From NCBI RefSeq assembly GCF_001677475.2, contig NZ_CP015229.1: a stretch of 64,000 bases of DNA; one strand, written 5' to 3'. Positions 58 through 55,962 of the stretch are shown here, one piece after another. The notes under the pieces were generated by a model that saw only the letters and a list, made by a program, of their open reading frames with translations, had not been told where the DNA came from and ran no database searches. Position 1 is the first letter of the stretch. Every line of letters starts with the position of its first letter. The position numbers were made by a program, and so were the translations under genes. Source of the DNA: Escherichia coli (GTDB lineage: Bacteria > Pseudomonadota > Gammaproteobacteria > Enterobacterales > Enterobacteriaceae).

Positions 58-429
58 TCAGGCTCGGCGACCTTGTCGCGCCAACCAACGTGCAACAAGA
101 TCTTCCATTGCCTCTTTTTTATTTCTTAGTTCTTTTATGATCTCCTGCTGTTCATTATCAGGAAAAGCACTAAATATTTGTAGTAATTCCAATTGGTTAG
201 GGGTTAATGCCATAGATCTTGATGACGAAGATTCTGTTGTGTCTTCAGGTTCCATATCAAGATAACCCCCAGGCATCCCATATGTTTGCTCAATACGTCT
301 AGCTGCCTTTTCGCCAAACGTAGATTTACCGCTCATTAACTGAGATAAGTAACTTTTCTCTTTAGGCGGCAAAGTCCTGTCTTTGAACCACTCTTTGAGG
401 CGTAAACGCCGAATCTCTTTTGTTTCCAT
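58..429 (-). CDS. DicA/CI-like HTH repressor
   Basis: 123 aa; N-terminal HTH; C-terminal LTPNQLELLQIFSAFPDNEQ resembles DicA-type prophage repressors; divergent from a Cro-like gene. Confidence 0.7.
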   Translation of the reverse strand: METKEIRRLRLKEWFKDRTLPPKEKSYLSQLMSGKSTFGEKAARRIEQTYGMPGGYLDMEPEDTTESSSSRSMALTPNQLELLQIFSAFPDNEQQEIIKELRNKKEAMEDLVARWLARQGRRA

Positions 430-531: not shown

Positions 532-819
532 ATGACGCTAAAGGAATTCATCAAATCATTAAAAATTGGAGAAGCAAAAAAATTTGCGACCAACCTTGGT
601 GTGTCTCCATCCTTCTTGTCCCAAATGGCATCTGGAACTTCACCTGTGTCTCCTGTTCGTGCGTTGATGATAGAAGCAGAAACTGGAGGACACGTTACAA
701 GACGCGAATTGAGACCTAATGACTGGGAGCTTATATGGCCCGAATACACTGGAATCACGTCCCCTTCACGTCACAAATATGAACTTAACACCAAAAAGGC
801 TGATGGGGTTGACTCATGA
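532..819 (+). CDS. Cro/YdaS-like HTH regulator
   Basis: 95 aa, HTH near N-terminus, first gene of rightward early operon, translationally coupled to next gene. Confidence 0.6.
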   Translation: MTLKEFIKSLKIGEAKKFATNLGVSPSFLSQMASGTSPVSPVRALMIEAETGGHVTRRELRPNDWELIWPEYTGITSPSRHKYELNTKKADGVDS

Positions 820-1241
820 TAATCAAGCATGAACACATCCGCATGGCGATGAATGCATGGGCGCATCCGGACGGTGAAAAAGTTCCGGCAGCTGAAATAA
901 CCCGGGCTTATTTTGAGCTGGGTATGACGTTCCCGGAGCTATATGACGACAGGCATCCGGAAGCGCTGGCTCGTAATACCCAGAAAATTTTCCGCTGGCT
1001 GGATAAAGACACCCCTGATGCGGTTAAAAAAATTCAGGCGTTGTTACCAGCTATCGAAAAAGCAATGCCGCCTCTGCTGGTGGCCCGAATGCGCAGCCAC
1101 AGTTCAGCCTATTTTCGGGAACTGGTGGAGACGCGGGAACGACTGGTGAGAGACGCTGATGATTTTGTCGCAGTGGCGATCGCTGGTTTCAATCAGATGA
1201 ATCGTGGTGGTCCGGCGGGAAATGCCGTGGTGATGCACTAA
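816..1241 (+). CDS. YdaT-like prophage protein
   Basis: 141 aa; N-terminal MIIKHEHI... and position after YdaS-like gene match the Rac YdaS-YdaT arrangement. Confidence 0.6.
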   Translation: MIIKHEHIRMAMNAWAHPDGEKVPAAEITRAYFELGMTFPELYDDRHPEALARNTQKIFRWLDKDTPDAVKKIQALLPAIEKAMPPLLVARMRSHSSAYFRELVETRERLVRDADDFVAVAIAGFNQMNRGGPAGNAVVMH

Positions 1242-1263
1242 AAGCACGGTGTTCGGGGGTTTT

Positions 1264-2232
1264 ATGAGCAGCAAGCTTCATGGTCTTGTCTGGGAAGGGT
1301 GCGCCTTCACTGGCATGATCTTATCCAGGGTGGCGGTTATGGCCCGTCTTGCAGACTACAGCAATGACGAGGGCGTGTCATGGCCTGCCATTGAAACTAT
1401 CCGGCGTCAGATCGGTGCAAGAAGTGAATCCACCGTGAAATCTGCTATTGCAGAACTGGCGAAAGAGGGCTGGCTGACGAAGGAAGAGCGTAAGGTCGGT
1501 GGGCGTAACGTAAGCAATATCTATCGGCTTAATGTGGAAAAACTCGAAGCAGCTGCAGCGGCGGCGCGTGAGGCATATAAACCGAAAAGAAAAATTAGCC
1601 CGGCAAAAAATGACCAGTTAACAGTTGACCAGTCAAATATTGCCCCATCAATGGTTGGCCCGTCAAATTTTGATGGATCAACTGTTGATAAAAAACTGCC
1701 GATTAGGGGGACGATGATTGACCCCGATCAGTCATTATTAAAACCTGATCCGTCAGATGAAAGATCTTCTTGTCCTGACGTTTCACTGCCGGACAAAAAA
1801 CAATCATCACCAGTTGAGCGATTTCTGGAGAAACACCCGGATGCGCATACCTGGAATGTGCAGAAGCGACAGTGGGGTACCCGTGAGGATGTCGCCTGTG
1901 CGCAGTGGATTTGGGGACGGGTTGTTGCGTTGTATGAACAGGCCGCCAGTGATGATGGTGAGGTATCACGCCCCAGAGAACCTAACTGGACGACCTGGGC
2001 GAATGATGTGCGCATGATGCGTATGCTGGATGGACGTAGTCACCGGCAGATTTGTGAAATGTTTGGGCGTGTCCAGCGGGATTCGTTCTGGGTAAAAAAC
2101 ATCATGAGTCCGGCAAAACTCCGGGAAAAATGGGATGAGCTGGTTATTCGTCTGGGGCGTTCGCCTGTACAGCGTTGCGTGAATCACATTTCTGAACCGG
2201 ATACCGAAATTCCGCCGGGGTTCAGGGGGTAA
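1264..2232 (+). CDS. Phage replication initiation protein (HTH, O-like)
   Basis: N-terminal winged-HTH segment typical of phage replication initiators; ATG at 1264 inside ORF 1249..2232; position after cro-like genes. Confidence 0.55.
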   Translation: MSSKLHGLVWEGCAFTGMILSRVAVMARLADYSNDEGVSWPAIETIRRQIGARSESTVKSAIAELAKEGWLTKEERKVGGRNVSNIYRLNVEKLEAAAAAAREAYKPKRKISPAKNDQLTVDQSNIAPSMVGPSNFDGSTVDKKLPIRGTMIDPDQSLLKPDPSDERSSCPDVSLPDKKQSSPVERFLEKHPDAHTWNVQKRQWGTREDVACAQWIWGRVVALYEQAASDDGEVSRPREPNWTTWANDVRMMRMLDGRSHRQICEMFGRVQRDSFWVKNIMSPAKLREKWDELVIRLGRSPVQRCVNHISEPDTEIPPGFRG

Positions 2233-2274
2233 GTGCTGATTTGAGGTCATGAAGTTATTTTCTCAGGAGAGTTT

Positions 2275-2676
2275 ATGGGGGCTATTTATACCGAAGAACA
2301 GCGGGAAAGGTTACAGCGTCACATCGTTGACCTTGTACGTAAAAACGGGCGTATGACAATGCCACAACTGGCATCGGCAACATATGCTTCACATGATTCC
2401 ATTCGCCGGTACCTGAAGATGCTGGTGAGCCAGGGCGAAGTGTATGTTGTCAGCGGAAAAGGGGTATTCCTTTCAGAGAGAGTTTACCGTGAATGGCTGG
2501 CAAGTTCGGCAAAAAAATCAAGGGTTATCCGCAAACCAGCACAAAAACAGGGTAAGGCCGGAGTACAACCCTACGACCGGCACCAGAACGTAATTTGCCG
2601 GGAATGTCGTAACAGCGAATCAATGCAGCGGGTACTGGCTTTTTACAGGGGTGGATTTCAGGAGCTCGTATCGTGA
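2275..2676 (+). CDS. Hypothetical protein (possible DNA-binding)
   Basis: 133 aa ORF with RBS-like AGGAGAG upstream; no recognisable motif. Confidence 0.45.
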   Translation: MGAIYTEEQRERLQRHIVDLVRKNGRMTMPQLASATYASHDSIRRYLKMLVSQGEVYVVSGKGVFLSERVYREWLASSAKKSRVIRKPAQKQGKAGVQPYDRHQNVICRECRNSESMQRVLAFYRGGFQELVS

Positions 2677-2981
2677 AAAAGTGGGTGCGTGCCGAGATAC
2701 TGATTCTACGGCAGTGTGCGGGAACAATGACGGTGGAATGCATCGGGATGCTTATTGGTCGTAGTGAGGCTGCGGTCAGAACGAAAGCGCGGGAACTGGG
2801 TATTAGTATGATGTTACGGGGTGATTATCACCAGTCAGCAAAATATCCGCAGAGTGATATTGAGCTGGCGCGACAGCTGCATCAGCGTGGCGTGTCCAGG
2901 AGAGAAATCGCCAGAAAATTTGGAATGCCGCTGCGCACAGTGAATAACTACGTTTATTTCGACAGGAGGGTGTCTGCGTGA
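2673..2981 (+). CDS. Hypothetical HTH protein
   Basis: 102 aa, overlapping start/stop with neighbours; HTH-like segment. Confidence 0.4.
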   Translation: MKKWVRAEILILRQCAGTMTVECIGMLIGRSEAAVRTKARELGISMMLRGDYHQSAKYPQSDIELARQLHQRGVSRREIARKFGMPLRTVNNYVYFDRRVSA

Positions 2982-3223
2982 AAATCCTGTATCAGGATTA
3001 CGGCCCGGTGGGACAGGTGGTTATCAGCAGTACTGTAATGGAGTTCCGGAAGCATAACCGTGTGGTGGATGCAGTGCTGTTAGCCTGTCCGGGGATATCG
3101 GCGAGCCGTGCAGGTGTGTTTTTTATGAAGACGAAGTTATATGGCAGTACAGCGTGGATAAAGAAGGCGTACCGGGTAGCGTTGCAGGAGGTAAACAGTG
3201 AGCGAATCGGCAACCATTCTTGA
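2978..3223 (+). CDS. Hypothetical protein
   Basis: 81 aa ORF translationally coupled in the operon. Confidence 0.3.
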   Translation: MKILYQDYGPVGQVVISSTVMEFRKHNRVVDAVLLACPGISASRAGVFFMKTKLYGSTAWIKKAYRVALQEVNSERIGNHS

Positions 3224-3686
3224 TATGTCCTGTGGCAGTCGTATGTTCTGGTTCGATAAGAATGACGACCGGGCGATATTTAGCGATATCAGAAAAGAAG
3301 AGCACACATTATGTGATGGACGACGCCTGATAATTAGCCCTGACCTGATAGCAGATTTTCGTGCATTACCATTTGCAGACGCATCGTTTCCGGTTGTTGT
3401 ATTCGACCCTCCGCATCTTGAGCGTGTTGGTGATAACGCCTGGATGGGAAAGAAATATGGACGGCTGAATAAAGATACCTGGCGTGATGATTTGCGGCAG
3501 GGATTTAAAGAAGCCTTTCGTGTGTTGTGGCCACACGGTGTTCTGATTTTTAAATGGAATGAAACGCAAATACCTGTCCGCCAGATATTGGCACTAACCG
3601 ACGCGAAACCAATCATCAGCCAGCGCACCGGTAAGAACGATAAAACACATTGGATTATTTTTGTGAAGGAAGCGACCAGTGGGTAA
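3198..3686 (+). CDS. Phage orphan DNA methyltransferase (N6-adenine type)
   Basis: 162 aa; motif VVVFDPPH (DPPY/DPPH catalytic motif IV of amino-methyltransferases); no adjacent restriction endonuclease. Confidence 0.65.
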   Translation: MSESATILDMSCGSRMFWFDKNDDRAIFSDIRKEEHTLCDGRRLIISPDLIADFRALPFADASFPVVVFDPPHLERVGDNAWMGKKYGRLNKDTWRDDLRQGFKEAFRVLWPHGVLIFKWNETQIPVRQILALTDAKPIISQRTGKNDKTHWIIFVKEATSG

Positions 3687-3933
3687 ATCAAAATGCCAGG
3701 TTTATGGCAACAAGATAGAACCGAGTACGGCACTGGCAAACTCCCTTGAGCATGATGCTGAATACACGACGCGAAAAGGTCTGCTGATATACAAAATCTG
3801 GAATGAGAGTTTAACTCGCGACCCTGATTTGGTGATGTTGCGTTCCGGTGAATTTTCTAAATCACCAGTGCGGGTTTCATTTTGTCCGTTCTGTGGTGAA
3901 AGTCTGAAAACGTGGGAGAACAGAAATGAATGA
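3679..3933 (+). CDS. Hypothetical protein with C-terminal zinc-ribbon-like CxxC
   Basis: 84 aa; CPFCG motif near C-terminus. Confidence 0.4.
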   Translation: MGKSKCQVYGNKIEPSTALANSLEHDAEYTTRKGLLIYKIWNESLTRDPDLVMLRSGEFSKSPVRVSFCPFCGESLKTWENRNE

Positions 3934-4237
3934 AATTAAAGAAATACCAGTAGTACGTGATGAATATGGCTGCTGGACGCATCCTGAATATGAAAAATTC
4001 TGTGATGGTAGAGAACATATTTCAACGGAAGAGTTTAACGCCTGGATGGAGGAAAATAATCTTCAATGGACCATCAGAACTATGGATGAAGATGATTTTA
4101 ATCTGGACGCAGATGGTCCCGATATTGCCTCCTGGAAACCGGAGCGCCCGGAAGGTGAAGGCTGGTTCATTGGTTCAATTCATGACACTGAAGATGGTCC
4201 GGTTTGTGTATGGCTGAGAAATAAGGTTGAAGCATAA
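3926..4237 (+). CDS. Hypothetical protein
   Basis: 103 aa ORF overlapping previous stop (ATGA). Confidence 0.4.
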   Translation: MNEIKEIPVVRDEYGCWTHPEYEKFCDGREHISTEEFNAWMEENNLQWTIRTMDEDDFNLDADGPDIASWKPERPEGEGWFIGSIHDTEDGPVCVWLRNKVEA

Positions 4238-4368
4238 AGGCGATAAACCACCTGACAACAAAACACTGAAAAATTTAAATCAGAAGTGAATTTTATTAAA
4301 TCCTTAACCGGAGGGATTCCTGCACTCTCAGAACATCAGGAGACCGCCCGAAAGGGCGGTAATGAAAA

Positions 4369-4836
4369 ATGGCTGAATTAACCAAATGGCTACAAAACAC
4401 GATTACCGGAATTGAAACGGTAGTAGACGATAAATCGTTTGTATGTGATGAAATAGTATTCAAAATCGATGTGGTTAAAAACGTACTTACCGCATTTAAA
4501 GTCGCGCTGGCATCGCTGGAAGCCGAACCGGTGACATGGCGATATCGCTACGTGAGAAAAGGCGTTACGAACTTTCAGGAGAAGCCGTGGGTTGGTGACT
4601 GGAAATATGTACCGACAAAAGAGGATTGCAACGACAGACCGAACTATGAAATTCAGGCGTTATTCACGGCCCAGCCTGTGCCACTGACACCCGAAGGATT
4701 GATTAAAGCGGTGCGCTTCTATGAACAGGTTAAGAGTGAAAATCCGCCAGTCGAAACCGGAGCATGGAAAGACGCTGTTGACTGGGTGCTCAAAGAGGCT
4801 TGTCAGGCTGTAAACATTGGCATCAAAGGAGAGTGA
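4369..4836 (+). CDS. Hypothetical protein
   Basis: 155 aa; N-terminus LTKWLQNTITGIE shared with ORF 5032..5244. Confidence 0.45.
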   Translation: MAELTKWLQNTITGIETVVDDKSFVCDEIVFKIDVVKNVLTAFKVALASLEAEPVTWRYRYVRKGVTNFQEKPWVGDWKYVPTKEDCNDRPNYEIQALFTAQPVPLTPEGLIKAVRFYEQVKSENPPVETGAWKDAVDWVLKEACQAVNIGIKGE

Positions 4837-4837
4837 G

Positions 4838-5029
4838 ATGAACGGACAAATATCAATTGTTCGACCGGGAGCATGTGACGATCGCGAGATACGAATGATT
4901 ATTCGTCTGGCGATGGGGAAAACAATAACTGCTCTCATTACTCCTGAAAATCTCGCATTAGCATTAACAGGAAAGTCAGACCTGCCAATAGAGCTAAAGC
5001 TGCGAAATGTTGAGATTAAGGTGAAATAG
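4838..5029 (+). CDS. Hypothetical small protein
   Basis: ATG at 4838 preceded by AAAGGAGAG RBS; 63 aa. Confidence 0.35.
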   Translation: MNGQISIVRPGACDDREIRMIIRLAMGKTITALITPENLALALTGKSDLPIELKLRNVEIKVK

Positions 5030-5031
5030 TT

Positions 5032-5244
5032 ATGAATACTCTTACCAAAGAATGGTTACAGAACACGATTACCAGCATTGAGTCAGCACGGGATGAAATA
5101 CCATTCGGACTCGATGAAGATCAAAGCAACATGCTTACCGCATTTACATTCCGGCGAGGAGAAGCAACGATTAAGCCGGGTAATGGTATTGAGCAGGCAA
5201 CTCACAGGATGAAATTACCGGAACCGCCGCAGGAGGTGAACTGA
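5032..5244 (+). CDS. Hypothetical protein (N-terminal paralog of 4369..4836)
   Basis: 70 aa; LTKEWLQNTITSIE and NMLTAF match the upstream ORF. Confidence 0.4.
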   Translation: MNTLTKEWLQNTITSIESARDEIPFGLDEDQSNMLTAFTFRRGEATIKPGNGIEQATHRMKLPEPPQEVN

Positions 5245-5639
5245 TGAAAGATGAAGTCGACAATGTTATCACCCTGGTACAGCCAAAATCAGAGGAGGAA
5301 GGACTCCTCAACGTTGTGATAACCGACAGAAAAAGCGGCGAGCAAAAATGCTGTCAGCATATCCGTACAACAATTTCAGAAGTGAATCGTACGATTACCT
5401 GCAACCGGTGTGGATTAGCTTTAGAGCCATTCGAGTTTATTCTCGATCGTGCGAGAAACGGTGAAAACATCGTGTCTGAGATTAAATCACTCTATGCAAA
5501 GCGGGATGCTCTTCGTGAAGCTGTGGCAAAACTTGAACGTGAAGAGAAAAACGCCAAAGCCCGGTTACGAGCAGCCAGGACAGCAATACTGTATGCGGAA
5601 AATGACCTTAAAAATATTGAGCAGGAGGTGAATCGATGA
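5244..5639 (+). CDS. Hypothetical protein with Cys cluster and C-terminal coiled coil
   Basis: 131 aa; CCQH...CNRCG then charged helical tail. Confidence 0.4.
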   Translation: MKDEVDNVITLVQPKSEEEGLLNVVITDRKSGEQKCCQHIRTTISEVNRTITCNRCGLALEPFEFILDRARNGENIVSEIKSLYAKRDALREAVAKLEREEKNAKARLRAARTAILYAENDLKNIEQEVNR

Positions 5640-5843
5640 CCTGGCCTGAGGCATTCACCACGGTAGGAATTGCGATGGCGGTGGCGCTGGTGGTGTATTC
5701 GATTTGCCGCTGGGGATAAATCGCCGAAAAAAGATCCCGACACAAACATGAGCCGGGATCTTTGATTTATATAGCCTACGAATCCGCCAGTAAGAGAGGG
5801 GGCGGATGGTTTATTCTACCACCGGAATGATGTGGGTAAAAAT

Positions 5844-6143
5844 TTATAAGAAATCGGTTTCATAACTTTGCCCACCATGATAGATACCGACAATAAAGAC
5901 TTTTCTGCCATCAACGGCAAAAGCAATAATCGTTCTGTGGCGGAAATGAGTTACCCGCATCCCCTGGCGAATATCATCGCGTTTATTGCCCCGATGCGGG
6001 AATGTAGAAAACCCATCAAGATAATCAAGAAGCGCATTGGCATAATTGTCAGCAATGACGTTCCCTGCTTTCTCCGTTATATATCTGTGCAGGTTGATTA
6101 TTTGTTGTTCGGCCTCAGGAGTAATGATGACTTCATATGTCAT
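5844..6143 (-). CDS. ParE/RelE-family type II toxin
   Basis: 99 aa; start MTYEVIITPEAEQ and end FIVGIYHGGQ are typical of ParE toxins; downstream of antitoxin in same operon. Confidence 0.7.
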   Translation of the reverse strand: MTYEVIITPEAEQQIINLHRYITEKAGNVIADNYANALLDYLDGFSTFPHRGNKRDDIRQGMRVTHFRHRTIIAFAVDGRKVFIVGIYHGGQSYETDFL

Positions 6144-6148
6144 GCAGA

Positions 6149-6406
6149 TTACTTCCCGGATCGAATCGCGGCGCGAACCTGTGAAATGGAGCGTCCGTTG
6201 TTTGGATTTTCGCGGATAGAATCAAGAGAGGGGGCGGCTGAATGCGTTAACCACGCTTCGATTGCTTTATCGCGCTCATTCAGTGCGCGAAGCCCTTCAC
6301 GAATGACCTCGCTTTCTGAAGCATAGGCACCGGAAGCCACACGGGCGCGCACCATGTCAGCCATCTCGTTAGTTAATGTAATGCTGAATTGTTGGGTTGT
6401 ACGCAT
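6149..6406 (-). CDS. ParD-type antitoxin (ribbon-helix-helix)
   Basis: Internal start MRTTQQFSITLTNEMADMVRARV (RHH beta-strand-like) with RBS GAGG upstream; directly upstream of ParE gene. Confidence 0.65.
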   Translation of the reverse strand: MRTTQQFSITLTNEMADMVRARVASGAYASESEVIREGLRALNERDKAIEAWLTHSAAPSLDSIRENPNNGRSISQVRAAIRSGK

Positions 6407-6487
6407 GGTAAACCTCACGGAGTAGGATAGAACACCATTCGATGATAGCACGTTGCCTGTTGACGACAACAGAAATCAGAGACAATA

Positions 6488-6820
6488 TTGCCGCACGCCA
6501 GCCTGAACAACTGGCACCTGCTGCGCCAGCAGAGACAACCGATGGCGCACGATACCAAATTACACAATTCTGATGATTCTGCCGTCTTTGCCAGCAGGCA
6601 CGGGCGGCGTTCCTGCACTTTCAAATCTGACTGGTTCCAGCATGACCCATGCACTGAAGAACAGGCCGAGTGGCTGATTCAGTGCTACCGCAGACACGGA
6701 TACGAGATTAAGAAAGCCCTCAGCCTCGATTATCGTCACTGGATAATCTCCGTCAGGCTTCCTTACTCTGAACGCCCACCACGTCCATCCCGCACATTCC
6801 AGCAACGCATCTGGAGGTAA
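6488..6820 (+). CDS. Hypothetical protein
   Basis: 110 aa ORF ending 1 bp before next gene. Confidence 0.3.
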   Translation: MPHASLNNWHLLRQQRQPMAHDTKLHNSDDSAVFASRHGRRSCTFKSDWFQHDPCTEEQAEWLIQCYRRHGYEIKKALSLDYRHWIISVRLPYSERPPRPSRTFQQRIWR

Positions 6821-6821
6821 C

Positions 6822-7880
6822 ATGCGGGTATTGCTTCGACCTGTTCTGGTACCGGAACTCGGACTGGTTATCGTTAAGCCAGGCCGTGAATCCATGCAGG
6901 TATTCCATAACGGCAGAGTACTGGTGGAACCGGAACCGAAAAGTATGCGCGGTCTGCCGTCCGGAGTCGTTCCTGCCGTTCGCCAGCCGCTGGAGGAGGA
7001 TAAATCATTACTGCCGTTTTTCAGTAACGCACGGGTGATTCGTGCTGCTGGTGGTGCTGGTGCATTGTCTGACTGGCTGTTGCGCCATATTAAATCCTGC
7101 CAGTGGCCACACGGCGATTATCACCACAGTGAAACCGTCATTCACCGTTATGGCGCTGGCGCGATGGTGTTGTGCTGGCACTGCGACAACCAGTTGCGTG
7201 ACCAGACAGCCGAATCACTCGAGCAACTTGCTCATCAAAACCTGTCAGCATGGATGATTGACGTCATCCGTCACGCAATGAATGGCACACAGGAGCGGGA
7301 ATTATCGCTGGCTGAATTATCCTGGTGGGCAGTCTGCAATCAGGTGGCGGACGCGCTACCGGAGACAGTATTACGTCGTTCTCTGAGGTTACGTGCGGAA
7401 AAAATCCGCTCGGTGTATCGCGAAAGCGACATCGTACCGGGAGAGCAGACCGCCACCAGCATACTAAAGCAGCGCACAAAAAATCTTGCGCCGTTGCCTC
7501 ACTCTCATCAGCAACAGAACCCGCCACAGGAAAAGACGGTGGTCAGCATTGCCGTTGATCCGGAGTCACCGGCTCAGTATCTCCAGCGCCAGAAACCACA
7601 ACGGGAAGAGATGCCCGTATACACGCGCTGGGTAAAAACGCAGAAATGCATGACGTGCGGTAATCAGGCAGATGATCCGCATCACATCATTGGTCATGGA
7701 CTGGGAGGGATGGGAACAAAGGCTGATGATTTGTTTGTTATTCCGCTGTGCCGTAAATGTCATAACGAACTGCACGCCGGGGTAAAAGATTTTGAAGAAA
7801 AACACGGCAGCCAGCTGTTGTTGCTGATTCGTTTTTTAATGCACGCGAGAAATTCGGGTGTCCTGAAGTGGAAAGCATGA
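6822..7880 (+). CDS. DUF968/YdfU-like prophage protein with HNH-like C-terminal Cys/His cluster
   Basis: 352 aa; C-terminal CMTCGN...HHIIGHG...CRKCHNELH; size and position upstream of rusA as in lambdoid nin regions; true start uncertain. Confidence 0.5.
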   Translation: MRVLLRPVLVPELGLVIVKPGRESMQVFHNGRVLVEPEPKSMRGLPSGVVPAVRQPLEEDKSLLPFFSNARVIRAAGGAGALSDWLLRHIKSCQWPHGDYHHSETVIHRYGAGAMVLCWHCDNQLRDQTAESLEQLAHQNLSAWMIDVIRHAMNGTQERELSLAELSWWAVCNQVADALPETVLRRSLRLRAEKIRSVYRESDIVPGEQTATSILKQRTKNLAPLPHSHQQQNPPQEKTVVSIAVDPESPAQYLQRQKPQREEMPVYTRWVKTQKCMTCGNQADDPHHIIGHGLGGMGTKADDLFVIPLCRKCHNELHAGVKDFEEKHGSQLLLLIRFLMHARNSGVLKWKA

Positions 7881-8261
7881 ATGACTGAACGCATAGAATT
7901 TGTTTTGCCTTACCCGCCGACGGTAAACACCTACTGGAGACGTCATGGCAATACGTATTTCATCTCGGAAGTCGGAAAGCGTTATCGCCGTGATGTGGCT
8001 CTAATTGTTCGCCAGCAGCGACTGAAATTAAACCTGTCCGGAAGGCTGGCGATAAAGATTATTGCAGAGCCACCGGATAAGCGCCGTCGTGACCTGGACA
8101 ATATCCTGAAAGCACCGCTGGATGCGTTGACGCATGCGGGACTGCTTATCGACGACGAGCAGTTTGATGAAATCAATATTGTGCGCGGTCAGCTTGTTCC
8201 TGGTGGTCGGCTGGGCGTGAAGATTGACGAAATAATGCATGACGGGCAGGTCCAAAAATGA
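7881..8261 (+). CDS. rusA: Holliday junction resolvase RusA
   Basis: 126 aa; YPPTVNTYWR and RRRDLDN motifs match RusA. Confidence 0.8.
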   Translation: MTERIEFVLPYPPTVNTYWRRHGNTYFISEVGKRYRRDVALIVRQQRLKLNLSGRLAIKIIAEPPDKRRRDLDNILKAPLDALTHAGLLIDDEQFDEINIVRGQLVPGGRLGVKIDEIMHDGQVQK

Positions 8262-9079
8262 AACTGGAAGATTTACCGAAATACTATTCCCCAAAATCGC
8301 CAGGCCTGACTGATGCATCCGCCTCGACGTCAAAAGATGCGCTGAGTATCACTGATGTGATGGCTGCGCAGGGTATGACACAGAACCGGGCTGAGATGGG
8401 ATTTTCTGCGTTCCTGGGGAAAATGGGCATTAGTATGAATGACAGGGCGCGGGCAACAGAATTACTGGCAGATTATGCATTAAGTCAGTGCGGTCGTGTG
8501 GCTGCGTTAAGAAAACTTCCGGCAGAGATAAAACCGGCAGTGATGCGCATTATGGCTTCGTACGCTTTTGAGGATTATGCCCGCAGCGCAGCGAGTAAAA
8601 AGCAATGCCCTTGTTGCCGAGGGGAAAAATTTATTGAAAGCGAGGTTTTTACAAACAAGGTTCAGTATCCGGATGGTAAGCCGCCAGTATGGGCAAAGTG
8701 TACAAAAGGCGTGTATCCGTCTTACTGGGAAGAATGGAAAAAAATCCGGGAGGTGGTGAAGGTTTCCTGTCCTGAATGTAAAGGGAAGGGAGAGATTTCG
8801 ACCGCCTGTAAAGACTGCCGTGGGCGTGGTGTAGCCATTCATCGTGAAGAGTCAGAAAAACGGGGTATGCCTGTTATCAGGGACTGCCAGCGTTGTGGCG
8901 GTCGTGGCTATGAAAGACAGCCGTCGACGGAGGCATTTAATGCCATATGTGAGGTGACAAATCAAATAACACGCGCGTCATGGGAAAAAACGGTTAAGCA
9001 ATTCTATGACACTCTGGTGGTTCGGTTTGACATTGAAGAGGCATGGGCGGAGCGGCAGTTAAAAAAGGTAACCAGATAA
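8258..9079 (+). CDS. Late-gene antiterminator Q-like protein
   Basis: 273 aa; multiple CxxC zinc motifs (CPCCRGE, CPECKGKGE, CKDCRGRG, CQRCGGRG); lies after rusA and before a strong terminator, as for Q. Confidence 0.65.
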   Translation: MKLEDLPKYYSPKSPGLTDASASTSKDALSITDVMAAQGMTQNRAEMGFSAFLGKMGISMNDRARATELLADYALSQCGRVAALRKLPAEIKPAVMRIMASYAFEDYARSAASKKQCPCCRGEKFIESEVFTNKVQYPDGKPPVWAKCTKGVYPSYWEEWKKIREVVKVSCPECKGKGEISTACKDCRGRGVAIHREESEKRGMPVIRDCQRCGGRGYERQPSTEAFNAICEVTNQITRASWEKTVKQFYDTLVVRFDIEEAWAERQLKKVTR

Positions 9080-52627: not shown

Positions 52628-53053
52628 GGAATGACGCGCACTATAAACATCCCGATGCGGCGTGTAAACCCCTAATTTGTTTGTTTGCCTGAAAAACAGC
52701 CAAAAGAGCATTGATAGCATGAAATAACAGCAGATTGATCATTTCATCACCATGAATTCCTTCTCTTTTACTCGTTTAGCAACCGGCTAAACATCCCCAC
52801 TGCCCGGCAAAAAGAAAAATAGGTCCATTTTTATCGCTAAAAGATAAATCCACACAGTTTGTATTGTTTTGTGCAAAAGTTTCACTACGCTTTATTAACA
52901 ATACTTTCTGGCGACGTGCGCCAGTGCAGAAGGATGAGCTTTCGTTTTCAGCATCTCACGTGAAGCGATGGTTTGCCTTGCTACAGGGACGTCGCTTGCC
53001 GACCATGTGCGCCCGGTGTCCTGCCGGTGTCGCAAGGAGAAGAGACGTGCGAT

Positions 53054-54172
53054 ATGAATAACGAGGAAACATTTTACCAGGCCATGCGGCGTCAGGGCGT
53101 TACCCGGCGCAGCTTTCTCAAATATTGTAGTCTGGCTGCCACGTCGCTGGGATTAGGCGCGGGAATGGCACCAAAGATTGCCTGGGCGCTGGAGAACAAA
53201 CCGCGCATTCCGGTGGTATGGATCCACGGTCTGGAATGCACCTGCTGTACCGAATCTTTTATCCGCTCCGCTCACCCACTGGCGAAGGACGTCATCCTTT
53301 CCCTGATTTCCCTCGATTACGACGATACTTTGATGGCAGCCGCCGGAACCCAGGCGGAAGAAGTCTTTGAAGACATCATCGCGCAATACAATGGCAAATA
53401 TATCCTCGCAGTAGAAGGTAATCCGCCGCTGGGCGAGCAGGGGATGTTCTGTATCAGCAGCGGACGACCGTTTATTGAGAAACTCAAACGTGCCGCTGCC
53501 GGAGCCAGTGCGATTATCGCCTGGGGAACCTGCGCGTCCTGGGGCTGCGTGCAGGCCGCGCGACCCAATCCGACGCAGGCAACGCCTATCGACAAAGTCA
53601 TCACCGACAAACCTATTATCAAAGTACCTGGCTGCCCGCCGATTCCGGATGTGATGAGCGCCATCATTACTTACATGGTGACCTTTGATCGCTTGCCAGA
53701 TGTCGACAGAATGGGCCGTCCGTTGATGTTCTATGGTCAGCGAATCCACGATAAATGCTATCGCCGCGCTCACTTCGACGCCGGAGAGTTCGTCCAGAGT
53801 TGGGATGATGACGCTGCCCGCAAAGGTTACTGCCTGTACAAAATGGGCTGCAAAGGGCCTACCACCTATAACGCCTGTTCCTCCACACGCTGGAATGATG
53901 GCGTTTCTTTCCCAATCCAGTCTGGTCACGGCTGCCTGGGCTGTGCGGAAAATGGTTTCTGGGATCGCGGTTCGTTCTACAGCCGCGTGGTCGATATTCC
54001 ACAAATGGGCACTCATTCCACCGCCGATACCGTCGGTTTAACCGCGCTTGGCGTGGTAGCAGCGGCTGTTGGTGTGCACGCAGTCGCCAGCGCCGTTGAC
54101 CAGCGCAGACGTCATAACCAGCAACCTACAGAAACCGAACATCAGCCAGGCAATGAGGATAAACAGGCATGA
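53054..54172 (+). CDS. hyaA: Hydrogenase-1 small subunit
   Basis: 372 aa; Tat signal RRSFLK; Cys clusters for FeS; starts [16 protein letters not shown]. Confidence 0.9.
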
Positions 54173-55962
54173 GCACTCAGTACGAAACTCAAGGATACAC
54201 CATCAATAATGCCGGACGCCGCCTGGTGGTCGACCCGATTACGCGCATTGAAGGCCACATGCGCTGCGAAGTGAATATTAACGATCAGAATGTGATCACC
54301 AATGCCGTCTCCTGCGGCACCATGTTTCGCGGGCTGGAGATCATCCTGCAAGGGCGCGACCCGCGCGATGCGTGGGCGTTCGTTGAACGTATCTGCGGCG
54401 TCTGTACTGGTGTACACGCCCTGGCTTCGGTTTACGCCATCGAAGATGCCATCGGTATTAAAGTGCCGGACAACGCCAATATCATCCGCAACATTATGCT
54501 GGCAACGCTCTGGTGCCACGATCATCTGGTGCACTTCTATCAGCTTGCCGGGATGGACTGGATCGATGTGTTAGATGCGCTGAAAGCCGACCCGCGGAAA
54601 ACCTCCGAACTGGCGCAAAGCCTCTCCTCATGGCCGAAATCATCCCCTGGCTATTTCTTCGACGTACAAAACCGCCTGAAGAAATTCGTTGAAGGTGGCC
54701 AGTTGGGGATCTTCCGCAATGGCTACTGGGGGCACCCGCAGTACAAACTGCCGCCAGAAGCCAACCTGATGGGCTTTGCCCACTATCTCGAAGCTCTCGA
54801 TTTCCAGCGTGAAATTGTCAAAATCCACGCGGTCTTTGGCGGTAAAAACCCGCATCCAAACTGGATTGTCGGCGGGATGCCTTGCGCCATTAACATTGAC
54901 GAAAGCGGCGCGGTCGGGGCGGTCAATATGGAACGCCTGAACCTGGTGCAGTCGATTATCACCCGCACGGCGGATTTCATTAACAACGTGATGATCCCCG
55001 ACGCCTTAGCCATTGGTCAGTTCAACAAACCGTGGAGCGAAATCGGCACGGGTCTTTCTGATAAATGTGTCCTCAGCTACGGCGCATTCCCGGATATTGC
55101 CAACGACTTTGGCGAGAAAAGTCTGCTGATGCCTGGCGGCGCGGTGATTAACGGCGACTTTAAAAATGTGCTGCCAGTGGATTTAGTTGATCCGCAGCAG
55201 GTGCAGGAGTTTGTTGACCATGCCTGGTATCGTTATCCCAACGATCAGGTTGGGCGTCATCCGTTCGATGGCATTACCGACCCGTGGTACAACCCCGGCG
55301 ATGTTAAAGGCAGCGATACCAACATTCAGCAGCTGAATGAACAGGAACGCTACTCGTGGATCAAAGCGCCACGCTGGCGCGGTAACGCGATGGAAGTGGG
55401 GCCGCTGGCACGCACGTTAATCGCTTATCACAAAGGCGATGCGGCGACCGTTGAGTCGGTCGATCGCATGATGTCGGCGTTGAACCTGCCACTTTCCGGC
55501 ATCCAGTCAACGTTGGGCCGCATTTTGTGCCGCGCGCACGAAGCGCAGTGGGCCGCAGGTAAGTTGCAGTATTTCTTCGACAAGCTGATGACCAATCTCA
55601 AAAACGGCAATCTTGCCACCGCCTCCACTGAAAAATGGGAACCTGCAACCTGGCCGACAGAGTGCCGTGGTGTCGGTTTTACCGAAGCGCCGCGCGGGGC
55701 GTTAGGCCACTGGGCTGCCATTCGCGATGGCAAGATTGATCTCTACCAGTGCGTGGTGCCGACCACCTGGAACGCCAGCCCGCGCGATCCTAAAGGGCAA
55801 ATTGGCGCTTATGAAGCGGCGCTGATGAACACCAAAATGGCGATCCCCGAGCAACCGCTGGAGATCCTGCGTACTCTGCACAGCTTTGATCCGTGCCTCG
55901 CCTGTTCAACACACGTGCTGGGCGACGACGGTAGCGAGCTGATCTCCGTGCAGGTGCGTTAA
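54169..55962 (+). CDS. hyaB: Hydrogenase-1 large subunit
   Basis: 597 aa; N-terminal RICGVC and C-terminal DPCLACSTH NiFe ligands. Confidence 0.9.

Follow-up and report, generated by a model that had tools for sequence, protein, structure and literature searches.

The locus and its prophage setting

The window, by which we mean the whole 64-kb stretch of E. coli DNA that was analysed, carries a Rac-like lambdoid prophage that is defective, and within the early-right operon of this prophage lies a small methyltransferase gene. The features of this region are:

58..429, minus strand: divergent RacR/CI-like repressor gene (the syntenic gene is annotated racR in NZ_CP013662.1)
532..5639, plus strand: closely packed early-right operon of the prophage, containing the methyltransferase gene (defined from the ORF listing, PHROG/Pfam matches and synteny)
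2978..3223, plus strand: upstream ORF of 81 aa (phrog_1001), sharing its last 26 nt with the methyltransferase gene
3186..3191, plus strand: Shine-Dalgarno sequence AGGAGG, 6 nt before the GTG of the methyltransferase ORF (read directly from the sequence)
3198..3686, plus strand: methyltransferase ORF of the ORF listing (162 aa, 18.75 kDa, pI 7.8, GTG start)
3679..3933, plus strand: downstream ORF of 84 aa (phrog_4030, with the cysteine pattern CxxxxxxxC...CxxC), sharing its first 8 nt with the methyltransferase gene

The original prediction had placed a 162-aa ORF bearing the peptide VVVFDPPH at 3198-3686, and exactly these coordinates and this motif were recovered in the ORF listing and the sequence: VVVFDPPH occupies aa 66-73 (nt 3393-3416) inside the peptide FPVVVFDPPH (aa 64-73), and its last four residues are encoded by GAC CCT CCG CAT at 3405-3416. 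By our own estimate about 0.3 occurrences of DPPH are to be expected by chance in the six-frame translation of 64 kb, and the four-residue motif by itself is insignificant; the ORF as a whole, however, lies far above chance because of its matches to phrog_954, to PADLOC profiles and to numerous homologues. Its start position matches the equivalent start in homologues. A longer antisense ORF (3137..3739, 200 aa) lacks comparable family support and is taken to be spurious.

The operon opens with a cro/YdaS-like gene, followed by a YdaT-like gene, an O-like replication initiator (1249-2232), a DUF977/Ren-like gene, an HTH gene, the phrog_1001 ORF and the methyltransferase; beyond the latter come small nin-like ORFs and then DUF968, RusA and a DUF1133-like gene (by synteny with NZ_CP013662.1). 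Based on the biology of lambdoid phages, the divergent repressor is expected to keep the early-right operon silent in the lysogen, and it is a natural inference that the genes of the operon are co-transcribed after induction. Promoter-like and terminator-like signals in the operon did not rise above shuffle expectation.

Elsewhere in the prophage the terL gene is split in two, with 13689-14882 encoding the ATPase domain and nuclease-domain positions 2-64, and 30130-30855 encoding nuclease positions 64-283. The split is caused by an inserted element of ~15.3 kb that encodes an integrase, a Bro-N protein, a RepA-like AAA_25 helicase, a prohead protease, an HK97-type capsid protein, a portal protein, TerS and TerL. 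The head module of the prophage contains an IS21 (istA/istB, 33780-36031), and hya-type NiFe-hydrogenase genes from 52973 onwards mark the chromosomal flank.

The methyltransferase is an orphan. When the 71 ORFs of at least ~100 aa in the 64-kb window were scanned against PADLOC-DB at E<=1e-5, a scan that a restriction endonuclease would escape if its family is absent from PADLOC or if it is shorter than 100 aa, neither an endonuclease nor a second methyltransferase was recovered, in agreement with the original prediction that no restriction enzyme is a neighbour, and the methyltransferase ORF itself was the only restriction-modification match. Pfam and PHROG searches with the ten ORFs flanking the methyltransferase returned only replication, HTH and unknown-function phage families, and RusA is the only endonuclease in the syntenic RefSeq annotation. 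A DrmD-like PADLOC match also arises in the window; ten candidate ORFs were tested as its source, all with negative results.

Family, conserved residues and predicted fold

The methyltransferase ORF matches phrog_954, labelled "DNA methyltransferase", with an E-value of 3.6e-86, its residues 3-160 aligning with positions 50-204 of the 229 in the profile; the ~49 profile positions ahead of this alignment represent N-terminal extensions that only some members have and that are not conserved. The PADLOC profiles MTase_II (8.9e-71) and oMTase (1.2e-46) match it from end to end. The DNA-methyltransferase labels that PHROGs and PADLOC give to this family are predictions, not assays, and searches of the literature recovered no characterised member of phrog_954. 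An NCBIfam search with the ORF likewise gave no meaningful match. Homologues are nevertheless abundant, with 4493 recovered at E<=1e-3 from a 90%-clustered protein collection and 1934 representatives at the same threshold from a 50%-clustered library. The gene is 100% identical in nucleotide sequence to genes in several RefSeq E. coli chromosomes, whose PGAP product is WP_000004205.1, "class I SAM-dependent methyltransferase", and copies at ~80% nucleotide identity or more are found in 874 of 5426 complete E. coli genomes (~16%). It is therefore an ordinary, already catalogued and common prophage accessory gene.

Tblastn searches recovered the family in 253 of 50,697 phage records, where the homologues are typically 45-65% identical to the E. 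coli protein. These phages span the Firmicutes, Actinobacteria, Proteobacteria and Bacteroidetes, i.e. four phyla, and their hosts include Streptococcus, Vibrio, Acinetobacter, Porphyromonas, Listeria (A118 ORF50), Gordonia, Corynebacterium, Lactobacillus, Enterococcus and Staphylococcus. The phage records are annotated variously as "DNA methyltransferase", "methyltransferase", "DNA cytosine methyltransferase" or "hypothetical protein"; NCBI PGAP and the Gordonia phage records examined (H32, H33) give no more than a generic methyltransferase label. The family is present on 61 of 72,556 plasmids, most of them non-mobilizable, and in a single conjugative-element context (L009); we accordingly rejected the idea that it is a typical gene of the leading region of conjugative plasmids.

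Conservation was assessed in an alignment of 95 representatives with 40-91% identity to the query. Six residues (D30, R32, P48, P71, P72 and R108) are invariant in this set, and at least 95% conservation is seen at D9, G13, D49, D53, F64, V67, F69, D70, H73, Y87, G88, L90, W95, F103, E105, V109, L110, G114, F118, K119, W120, P138 and K157. The core of the family is mildly basic, with a median pI of 8.4. Mapped on the window, the main elements of the protein are:

3219..3239, plus strand: motif I, the SAM-binding loop after strand beta1 (aa 8-14, LDMSCGS), from conservation and alignment with 1ve3
3285..3293, plus strand: D30-I-R32 at the end of strand beta2, with D30 and R32 invariant
3297..3335, plus strand: beta-hairpin insertion (aa 34-46) between beta2 and beta3, with AlphaFold2 strands at 34-37 and 43-46 and pLDDT above 93
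3354..3359, plus strand: motif III, D53-F54 (D53 95%, F54 92%), aligning with GDA of 1ve3
3405..3416, plus strand: motif IV, DPPH (aa 70-73), immediately after strand beta4 (aa 64-69), from conservation and the model

A comparison of these elements with class I methyltransferases showed that: 1) Motif I has the family consensus LDxCCGS (L8 92%, D9 98%, C12 94%, G13 96%), which in a family-profile alignment is equivalent to the VLDLACGVGG motif I of PH0226 (PDB 1ve3), and which is atypical in having CCGSRM in place of GxGxG. 2) D30 aligns with the acidic residue at the end of beta2 in 1ve3 and, as in class I methyltransferases generally, presumably binds the ribose of SAM. 3) The D53-F54 pair is expected, from this alignment, to contact the adenine of SAM, and with it the protein has the complete class I set of motif I loop, acidic residue at the end of beta2 and motif III aspartate. 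4) The DPPH of motif IV (D70 99%, P71 100%, P72 100%, H73 99%) follows directly on beta4 and conforms to the (D/N/S)PP(Y/F/W/H) signature of the amino-methyltransferases. In enzymes with this signature the acceptor is an exocyclic amino nitrogen and, given the conserved DPPH, such a nitrogen is therefore the likely acceptor here. As both the SAM-binding residues and DPPH are 95-100% conserved, we consider it very probable that the protein is an active SAM-dependent amino-methyltransferase, whatever its substrate.

The family also includes truncated copies, such as a 118-aa version in phage PhiR42_1 and several fragments. These, together with the interruption of the terminase gene by the ~15.3 kb element and the IS21 in the head module, would suit an explanation in which the window gene is a functionless passenger of a defective prophage that is never usefully expressed and is drifting towards decay. 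We regard this as extremely improbable: the ORF is full length with every conserved residue of the family in place, it is identical to copies in other E. coli genomes, and the defect of the prophage says nothing on the activity that it encodes.

The AlphaFold2 model (mean pLDDT 95.1, pTM 0.89) contains the seven-stranded beta-sheet core of the class I Rossmann fold. The catalytic core uses all 162 residues, the only extras being the hairpin of aa 34-46 and the loop of aa 73-95, and a target-recognition domain is absent from the model. Just three helices are predicted (82-87, 95-109 and 127-131), such that the SAM-binding half lacks the usual helices, and the chain ends ~6 residues after strand beta7 without a C-terminal domain. 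The hairpin, in which R42 is 77% conserved and which is followed by the invariant P48, is the only extra element of the model that could contact a substrate. Longer homologues carry N- and C-terminal extensions that are heterogeneous and not conserved, such as a Zn-ribbon-like tail in P0086; at least some of the C-terminal ones match the N-terminus of the downstream gene, and in one plasmid record this is an ead/Ea22-like protein. On both counts we rejected the interpretation of 248-aa homologues as fusions of the methyltransferase to a target-recognition domain.

Neighbouring genes and candidate substrates

Across 80 IMG/VR loci no family of neighbouring genes recurs in more than 25, and the commonest neighbours are integrase, repressor and replication genes. 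DNA methylase genes repeatedly adjoin homologues in unrelated phages: an N6_N4_Mtase in L003 and L004, a C5 methylase in L006, a C5 methylase of 671 aa within ~1.5 kb of the homologue in 12 of the 80 loci and, in 5 of the 80, an MT-A70-type DPPW gene as the next gene downstream. The adjacency also holds for gp66 of the Gordonia phage Nymphadora, where the homologue overlaps the stop of a large DNA methylase gene. The homologue of the conjugative element L009 lies beside genes for ArdC, SSB and a topoisomerase. An annotated RtcB gene is adjacent to the homologue in Corynebacterium phage Adelaide, and L007 has an RtcB gene ~3 kb away.

The arrangement in Nymphadora, the start/stop overlaps with small ORFs on both sides in the window, which point to translational coupling, and the variable terminal extensions of some homologues, including the tail in P0086, could be reconciled with the protein being the catalytic subunit of a two-part DNA methyltransferase, which would depend for its specificity on a partner: a small neighbouring phage protein like that of the 84-aa ORF at 3679-3933, another methylase, or a host component, for example the replisome. 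There is precedent for such dependence in M.EcoGIX/M.BceJIII, which seem to depend on another host protein linking the methylase to the replication fork (PMC7736820). We nevertheless consider a two-part enzyme quite improbable. The small flanking ORFs are not conserved between lineages, and the 81-aa and 84-aa ORFs show no similarity to the ORFs that flank a distant homologue; neither could be sustained as a conserved partner or a split-off recognition domain, as the 80 loci contain no conserved neighbour. The extensions, for their part, look like fusions with the adjoining gene.

Among the specific Pfam families, the one matched by most members is PF01555 (N6_N4_Mtase), to which 27 of the 95 align weakly at 13-18 bits, below the cut-off of 26.7, and in which only profile positions 2-65 are covered by homologue residues ~61-135, i.e. 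the module from DPPH to beta5. No Pfam DNA-methylase family reaches threshold for the methyltransferase ORF or the 95 members, and N6_Mtase, Eco57I and TaqI_C gave no match. The best Pfam matches of the 95 members are the generic Methyltransf_11/25, and weak matches were recovered to Cons_hypoth95 in 3 of the 95 (best E 0.016), to UPF0020 in 1 of the 95 and to PF10237, the family of the lysine methyltransferase EEF1AKMT1, in 2 of the 95. The labels in PHROGs and PADLOC, the weak match to the PF01555 module, the adjacency to DNA methylases, the context with ArdC and the basic core together favour DNA, which is probably the substrate. The missing recognition domain and the failure of curated Pfam and NCBIfam DNA-methylase models to match at threshold are neutral or speak against DNA. 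As for the original prediction of an orphan phage DNA methyltransferase, its compact, SAM-dependent, prophage-borne and orphan enzyme with a conserved motif IV stands, and DNA as the substrate carries over only as this probable attribution.

Structural comparisons do not single out one class of substrate. A PDB sequence search with the single protein gave no match, and a search with the family profile gave marginal generic matches only, among them weak ones to Trm11 and the putative methylase HI0767. Structure searches with the model likewise recovered generic class I methyltransferases only: the top matches are PH0226, phosphatidylethanolamine N-methyltransferase, NRMT1 and KMT9, and enzymes acting on RNA (Trm11, TrmN, RsmC, TrmM), DNA (M.TaqI, N4CMT) and protein (KMT9) are of similar rank, with query-normalised TM-scores not exceeding 0.61 for any of them, so that the ranks do not discriminate.

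One alternative, which we consider unlikely, is that the enzyme methylates RNA, forming m2G, m6A or m4C at a conserved tRNA or rRNA position of host or phage, by which it could weaken the effect of anticodon nucleases or of defences aimed at the ribosome, or adjust lytic translation. The closest amino-methyltransferases by structure include Trm11 (m2G10 tRNA), TrmN, RsmC, Trm14, TrmM and the archaeal rRNA m4(2)C synthase, and the profile matches to Trm11 and HI0767 point the same way. Like the window enzyme, Trm11, TrmN, RsmC/RsmD and TrmM contain a compact class I core in which motif IV reads (D/N)PP(F/Y/H), and in structural similarity they score as well as the DNA enzymes or better. It is usual to find, among RNA methyltransferases, small enzymes that work alone and have no recognition domain; RsmD, for instance, is ~198 aa long with a DPPF motif. 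The level of identity maintained across phages of four phyla fits a universally conserved substrate, and the strict histidine of motif IV together with this identity would also suit a universal substrate other than DNA; the proximity of RtcB in Adelaide and L007 is a further point of agreement. However, the small RNA enzymes bear N-terminal RNA-binding modules such as THUMP, or have the assembled ribosome as their substrate, whereas no THUMP, PUA or similar module of the RsmD/Trm11 type is added to the window protein. They are cellular housekeeping genes rather than phage accessory genes, and the RNA-related Pfam families Cons_hypoth95 and UPF0020 are matched far more rarely than N6_N4_Mtase. 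Moreover, the genes that recur beside the family serve DNA methylation, replication or recombination rather than RNA repair, and the structural ranks that favour RNA are undiscriminating.

A second alternative is an amino-methyltransferase acting on protein or a small molecule, with a Gln or Lys side chain, or a free adenine nucleotide or second messenger, as the acceptor; in the latter case it would, for example, inactivate a host immune signal. Protein methyltransferases with a (D/N)PP(Y/F/H) motif that modify glutamine or lysine are known in PrmC/HemK, KMT9 and EEF1AKMT1. The model lacks any macromolecule-recognition domain, its best structural matches, listed above, act on small molecules, lipids and proteins, and in Pfam the generic Methyltransf_11/25 come out best, with PF10237 also matched weakly. 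We judge this alternative to be quite unlikely, given that no conserved partner or target gene lies nearby, that both PHROGs and PADLOC group the family with DNA methylases, that it is co-located with such methylases, and that no positive evidence points to any particular small-molecule substrate.

Proposed function and related enzymes

The explanation that we prefer, and to which we would give about an even chance, is that the protein is a stand-alone amino-methyltransferase that acts on DNA with little or no specificity and serves in anti-restriction. The methyltransferase would be silent in the lysogen, within the repressed early-right operon, and after induction would be made together with the replication proteins. 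It would bind SAM via motif I (aa 8-14), D30 and D53-F54, and DPPH (aa 70-73) would hold the exocyclic amino nitrogen that accepts the methyl group. The enzyme would act on a base flipped out of freshly replicated phage DNA, adenine N6 being the likelier acceptor since motif IV begins with D and not S. As there is no target-recognition domain, little or no specificity is expected, and any recognition sequence would be very short or lacking altogether, with the enzyme possibly acting as a dimer. The benefit to the phage would be a broad shielding of its new DNA from host restriction enzymes.

The family is widespread and highly conserved among phages, is labelled "DNA methyltransferase" purely by inference, and its members are very small next to characterised DNA methyltransferases, of which M.EcoGII, for example, has 349 aa. 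If its substrate and specificity were established, the known anti-restriction enzymes and the enzyme toolbox would gain a minimal, possibly non-specific DNA methylase, or else a systematic error of annotation would be put right across phage genomes. We tentatively raise the possibility that this is the smallest self-sufficient nucleic-acid amino-methyltransferase known, a recognition-free core of ~18.7 kDa found in temperate phages of at least four phyla, which would either methylate adenine in DNA with little or no sequence specificity or counter host defence by modifying an RNA or nucleotide that is universally conserved. In the former case it would provide a universal anti-restriction coat and a potential compact tool for footprinting and epigenome editing; if the target is not DNA, hundreds of phage "DNA methyltransferase" annotations are wrong.

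With respect to known systems, M.EcoGI and M.EcoGII, from prophages of E. coli O104:H4, are adenine DNA methyltransferases without sequence specificity (PMC5778455). They share with the window enzyme their prophage-borne and orphan status, amino-methyltransferase chemistry and a D-P-P-aromatic motif IV; being silent in the lysogen and proposed to provide broad anti-restriction cover, they would be functional analogues of the window enzyme if the latter is non-specific. However, they are beta-class proteins of 349 aa that match PF01555, with an N-terminal DPPY, a TRD region and a C-terminal FxGxG, whereas the window protein has 162 aa, DPPH, motif I before motif IV and no TRD, and falls below the PF01555 threshold. 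The beta-class order of IV, TRD and I, typified by the PF01555 enzymes M.EcoGII, CcrM and M.PvuII, differs from that of the window protein, in which motif I (aa 8-14) precedes motif IV (aa 70-73). An assignment of the family to M.EcoGI/II, or to M.EcoGIX, a plasmid enzyme, was rejected since all of these are beta-class DPPY enzymes. The gamma-class N6-adenine enzyme M.TaqI, by comparison, has the same motif order, I then IV, and the same class I fold as the window protein, to which it is matched in Foldseek with an E-value of 1.8e-4 and a query-normalised TM-score of 0.49. M.TaqI itself has NPPY as its motif IV and a large C-terminal target-recognition domain, and the window enzyme thus agrees with the gamma class in motif order but not in the presence of a C-terminal TRD.

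The classical orphan methylases of phages, namely T4/T2 Dam, the P1 Dam-like enzyme, lambdoid Dam (PF05869) and the C5 methylases of the nin region, differ from the window family in having recognition domains, defined targets and curated Pfam models, none of which the window family has. They occupy the same early or nin-like niche of temperate phages with a presumed anti-restriction role, and members of these classical families adjoin homologues of the window gene.

Insertions in the host prophage and its right-hand boundary

The large-terminase gene of the defective Rac-like lambdoid prophage that bears the methyltransferase lies in two pieces, of which the 5' piece (13689-14882) stops at position 64 of the nuclease domain and the 3' piece (30130-30855) restarts at this same position. 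The two are separated by an element of about 15.3 kb (~14.8-30.1 kb), which encodes the following:

14822-16111, tyrosine integrase
Bro-N protein
19927-21336, AAA_25 RepA-like helicase
Prohead protease
23609-24754, HK97-type capsid protein
25276-26580, portal protein
27460-27957, small terminase subunit (TerS)
27941-29602, the element's own complete large terminase subunit (TerL)

The TerL of the element and that of the host prophage are 33% identical. In appearance the element is either a cf-PICI-like satellite that forms its own capsids or a small prophage, integrated in the terminase gene of the host prophage. No attachment-site repeats of the element were identified, the sole short direct repeats found being weak.

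A second disruption of the host prophage is an insertion sequence, situated between the prophage prohead protease (32238-32918) on one side and the remaining head and tail genes on the other. On its right-hand side the prophage gives way to chromosomal DNA at about 52.4-52.9 kb, a boundary marked by NiFe hydrogenase genes:

33780-36031, IS21-family insertion sequence, comprising an ORF of 499 aa, presumably istA, that carries a Mu-transposase C-terminal domain, and an IstB ATPase
52973-55962, genes of the hyaA/hyaB type for the small and large subunits of a NiFe hydrogenase

Judged from their size and order, the ORFs beyond hyaA/hyaB look like the rest of hya followed by appCBA.

Candidate toxin-antitoxin and defence genes

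Inside the nin-like region, on the opposite strand, we observed a pair of overlapping-to-adjacent small ORFs:

5844-6469, minus strand, two ORFs of 99 aa and 106 aa

By eye these look like a ParE/RelE-type toxin and a ribbon-helix-helix antitoxin; comparison of the pair with PADLOC gave no match. The PADLOC model for DrmD, the DISARM helicase, was matched at 5.1e-44 by one of the 71 ORFs compared in the window, and none of 10 candidate ORFs, each re-scanned singly, was positive for this match.

Length variants, probable fusions and neighbors of the methyltransferase homologues

Several homologues of the methyltransferase differ from it in length: 1) gene calls of 248 aa (P0013, P0072 and P0096) are frequent among the enterobacterial homologues, and their ~90 C-terminal residues are absent from the window protein; 2) P0005 spans 279 aa, and P0086 (208 aa) ends in a Zn-ribbon-like tail; 3) phage PhiR42_1 carries a truncated copy of 118 aa (locus L002, 6001-6357). 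For some of the C-terminal extensions, the matching sequence is the beginning of the gene that lies downstream, which suggests that these are read-through fusions.

A different kind of fusion seems to involve an ORF located downstream of the methyltransferase:

4817-5029, 70-aa ORF, phrog_1222

The N-terminal 93 positions of phrog_11564, which bears the database label 'DNA methyltransferase', are matched by the window methyltransferase, and its C-terminal 35 positions also by the 70-aa ORF. From this split, phrog_11564 seems to represent deletion fusions of the methyltransferase N-terminus to the downstream ORF.

In two unrelated contexts a gene annotated as an RtcB RNA ligase adjoins, or is near, a homologue:

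3866-4932, homologue and RtcB, Corynebacterium phage Adelaide (L010)
3786-8546, homologue and RtcB, locus L007

This proximity could be a coincidence, or hint at an RNA-related role.
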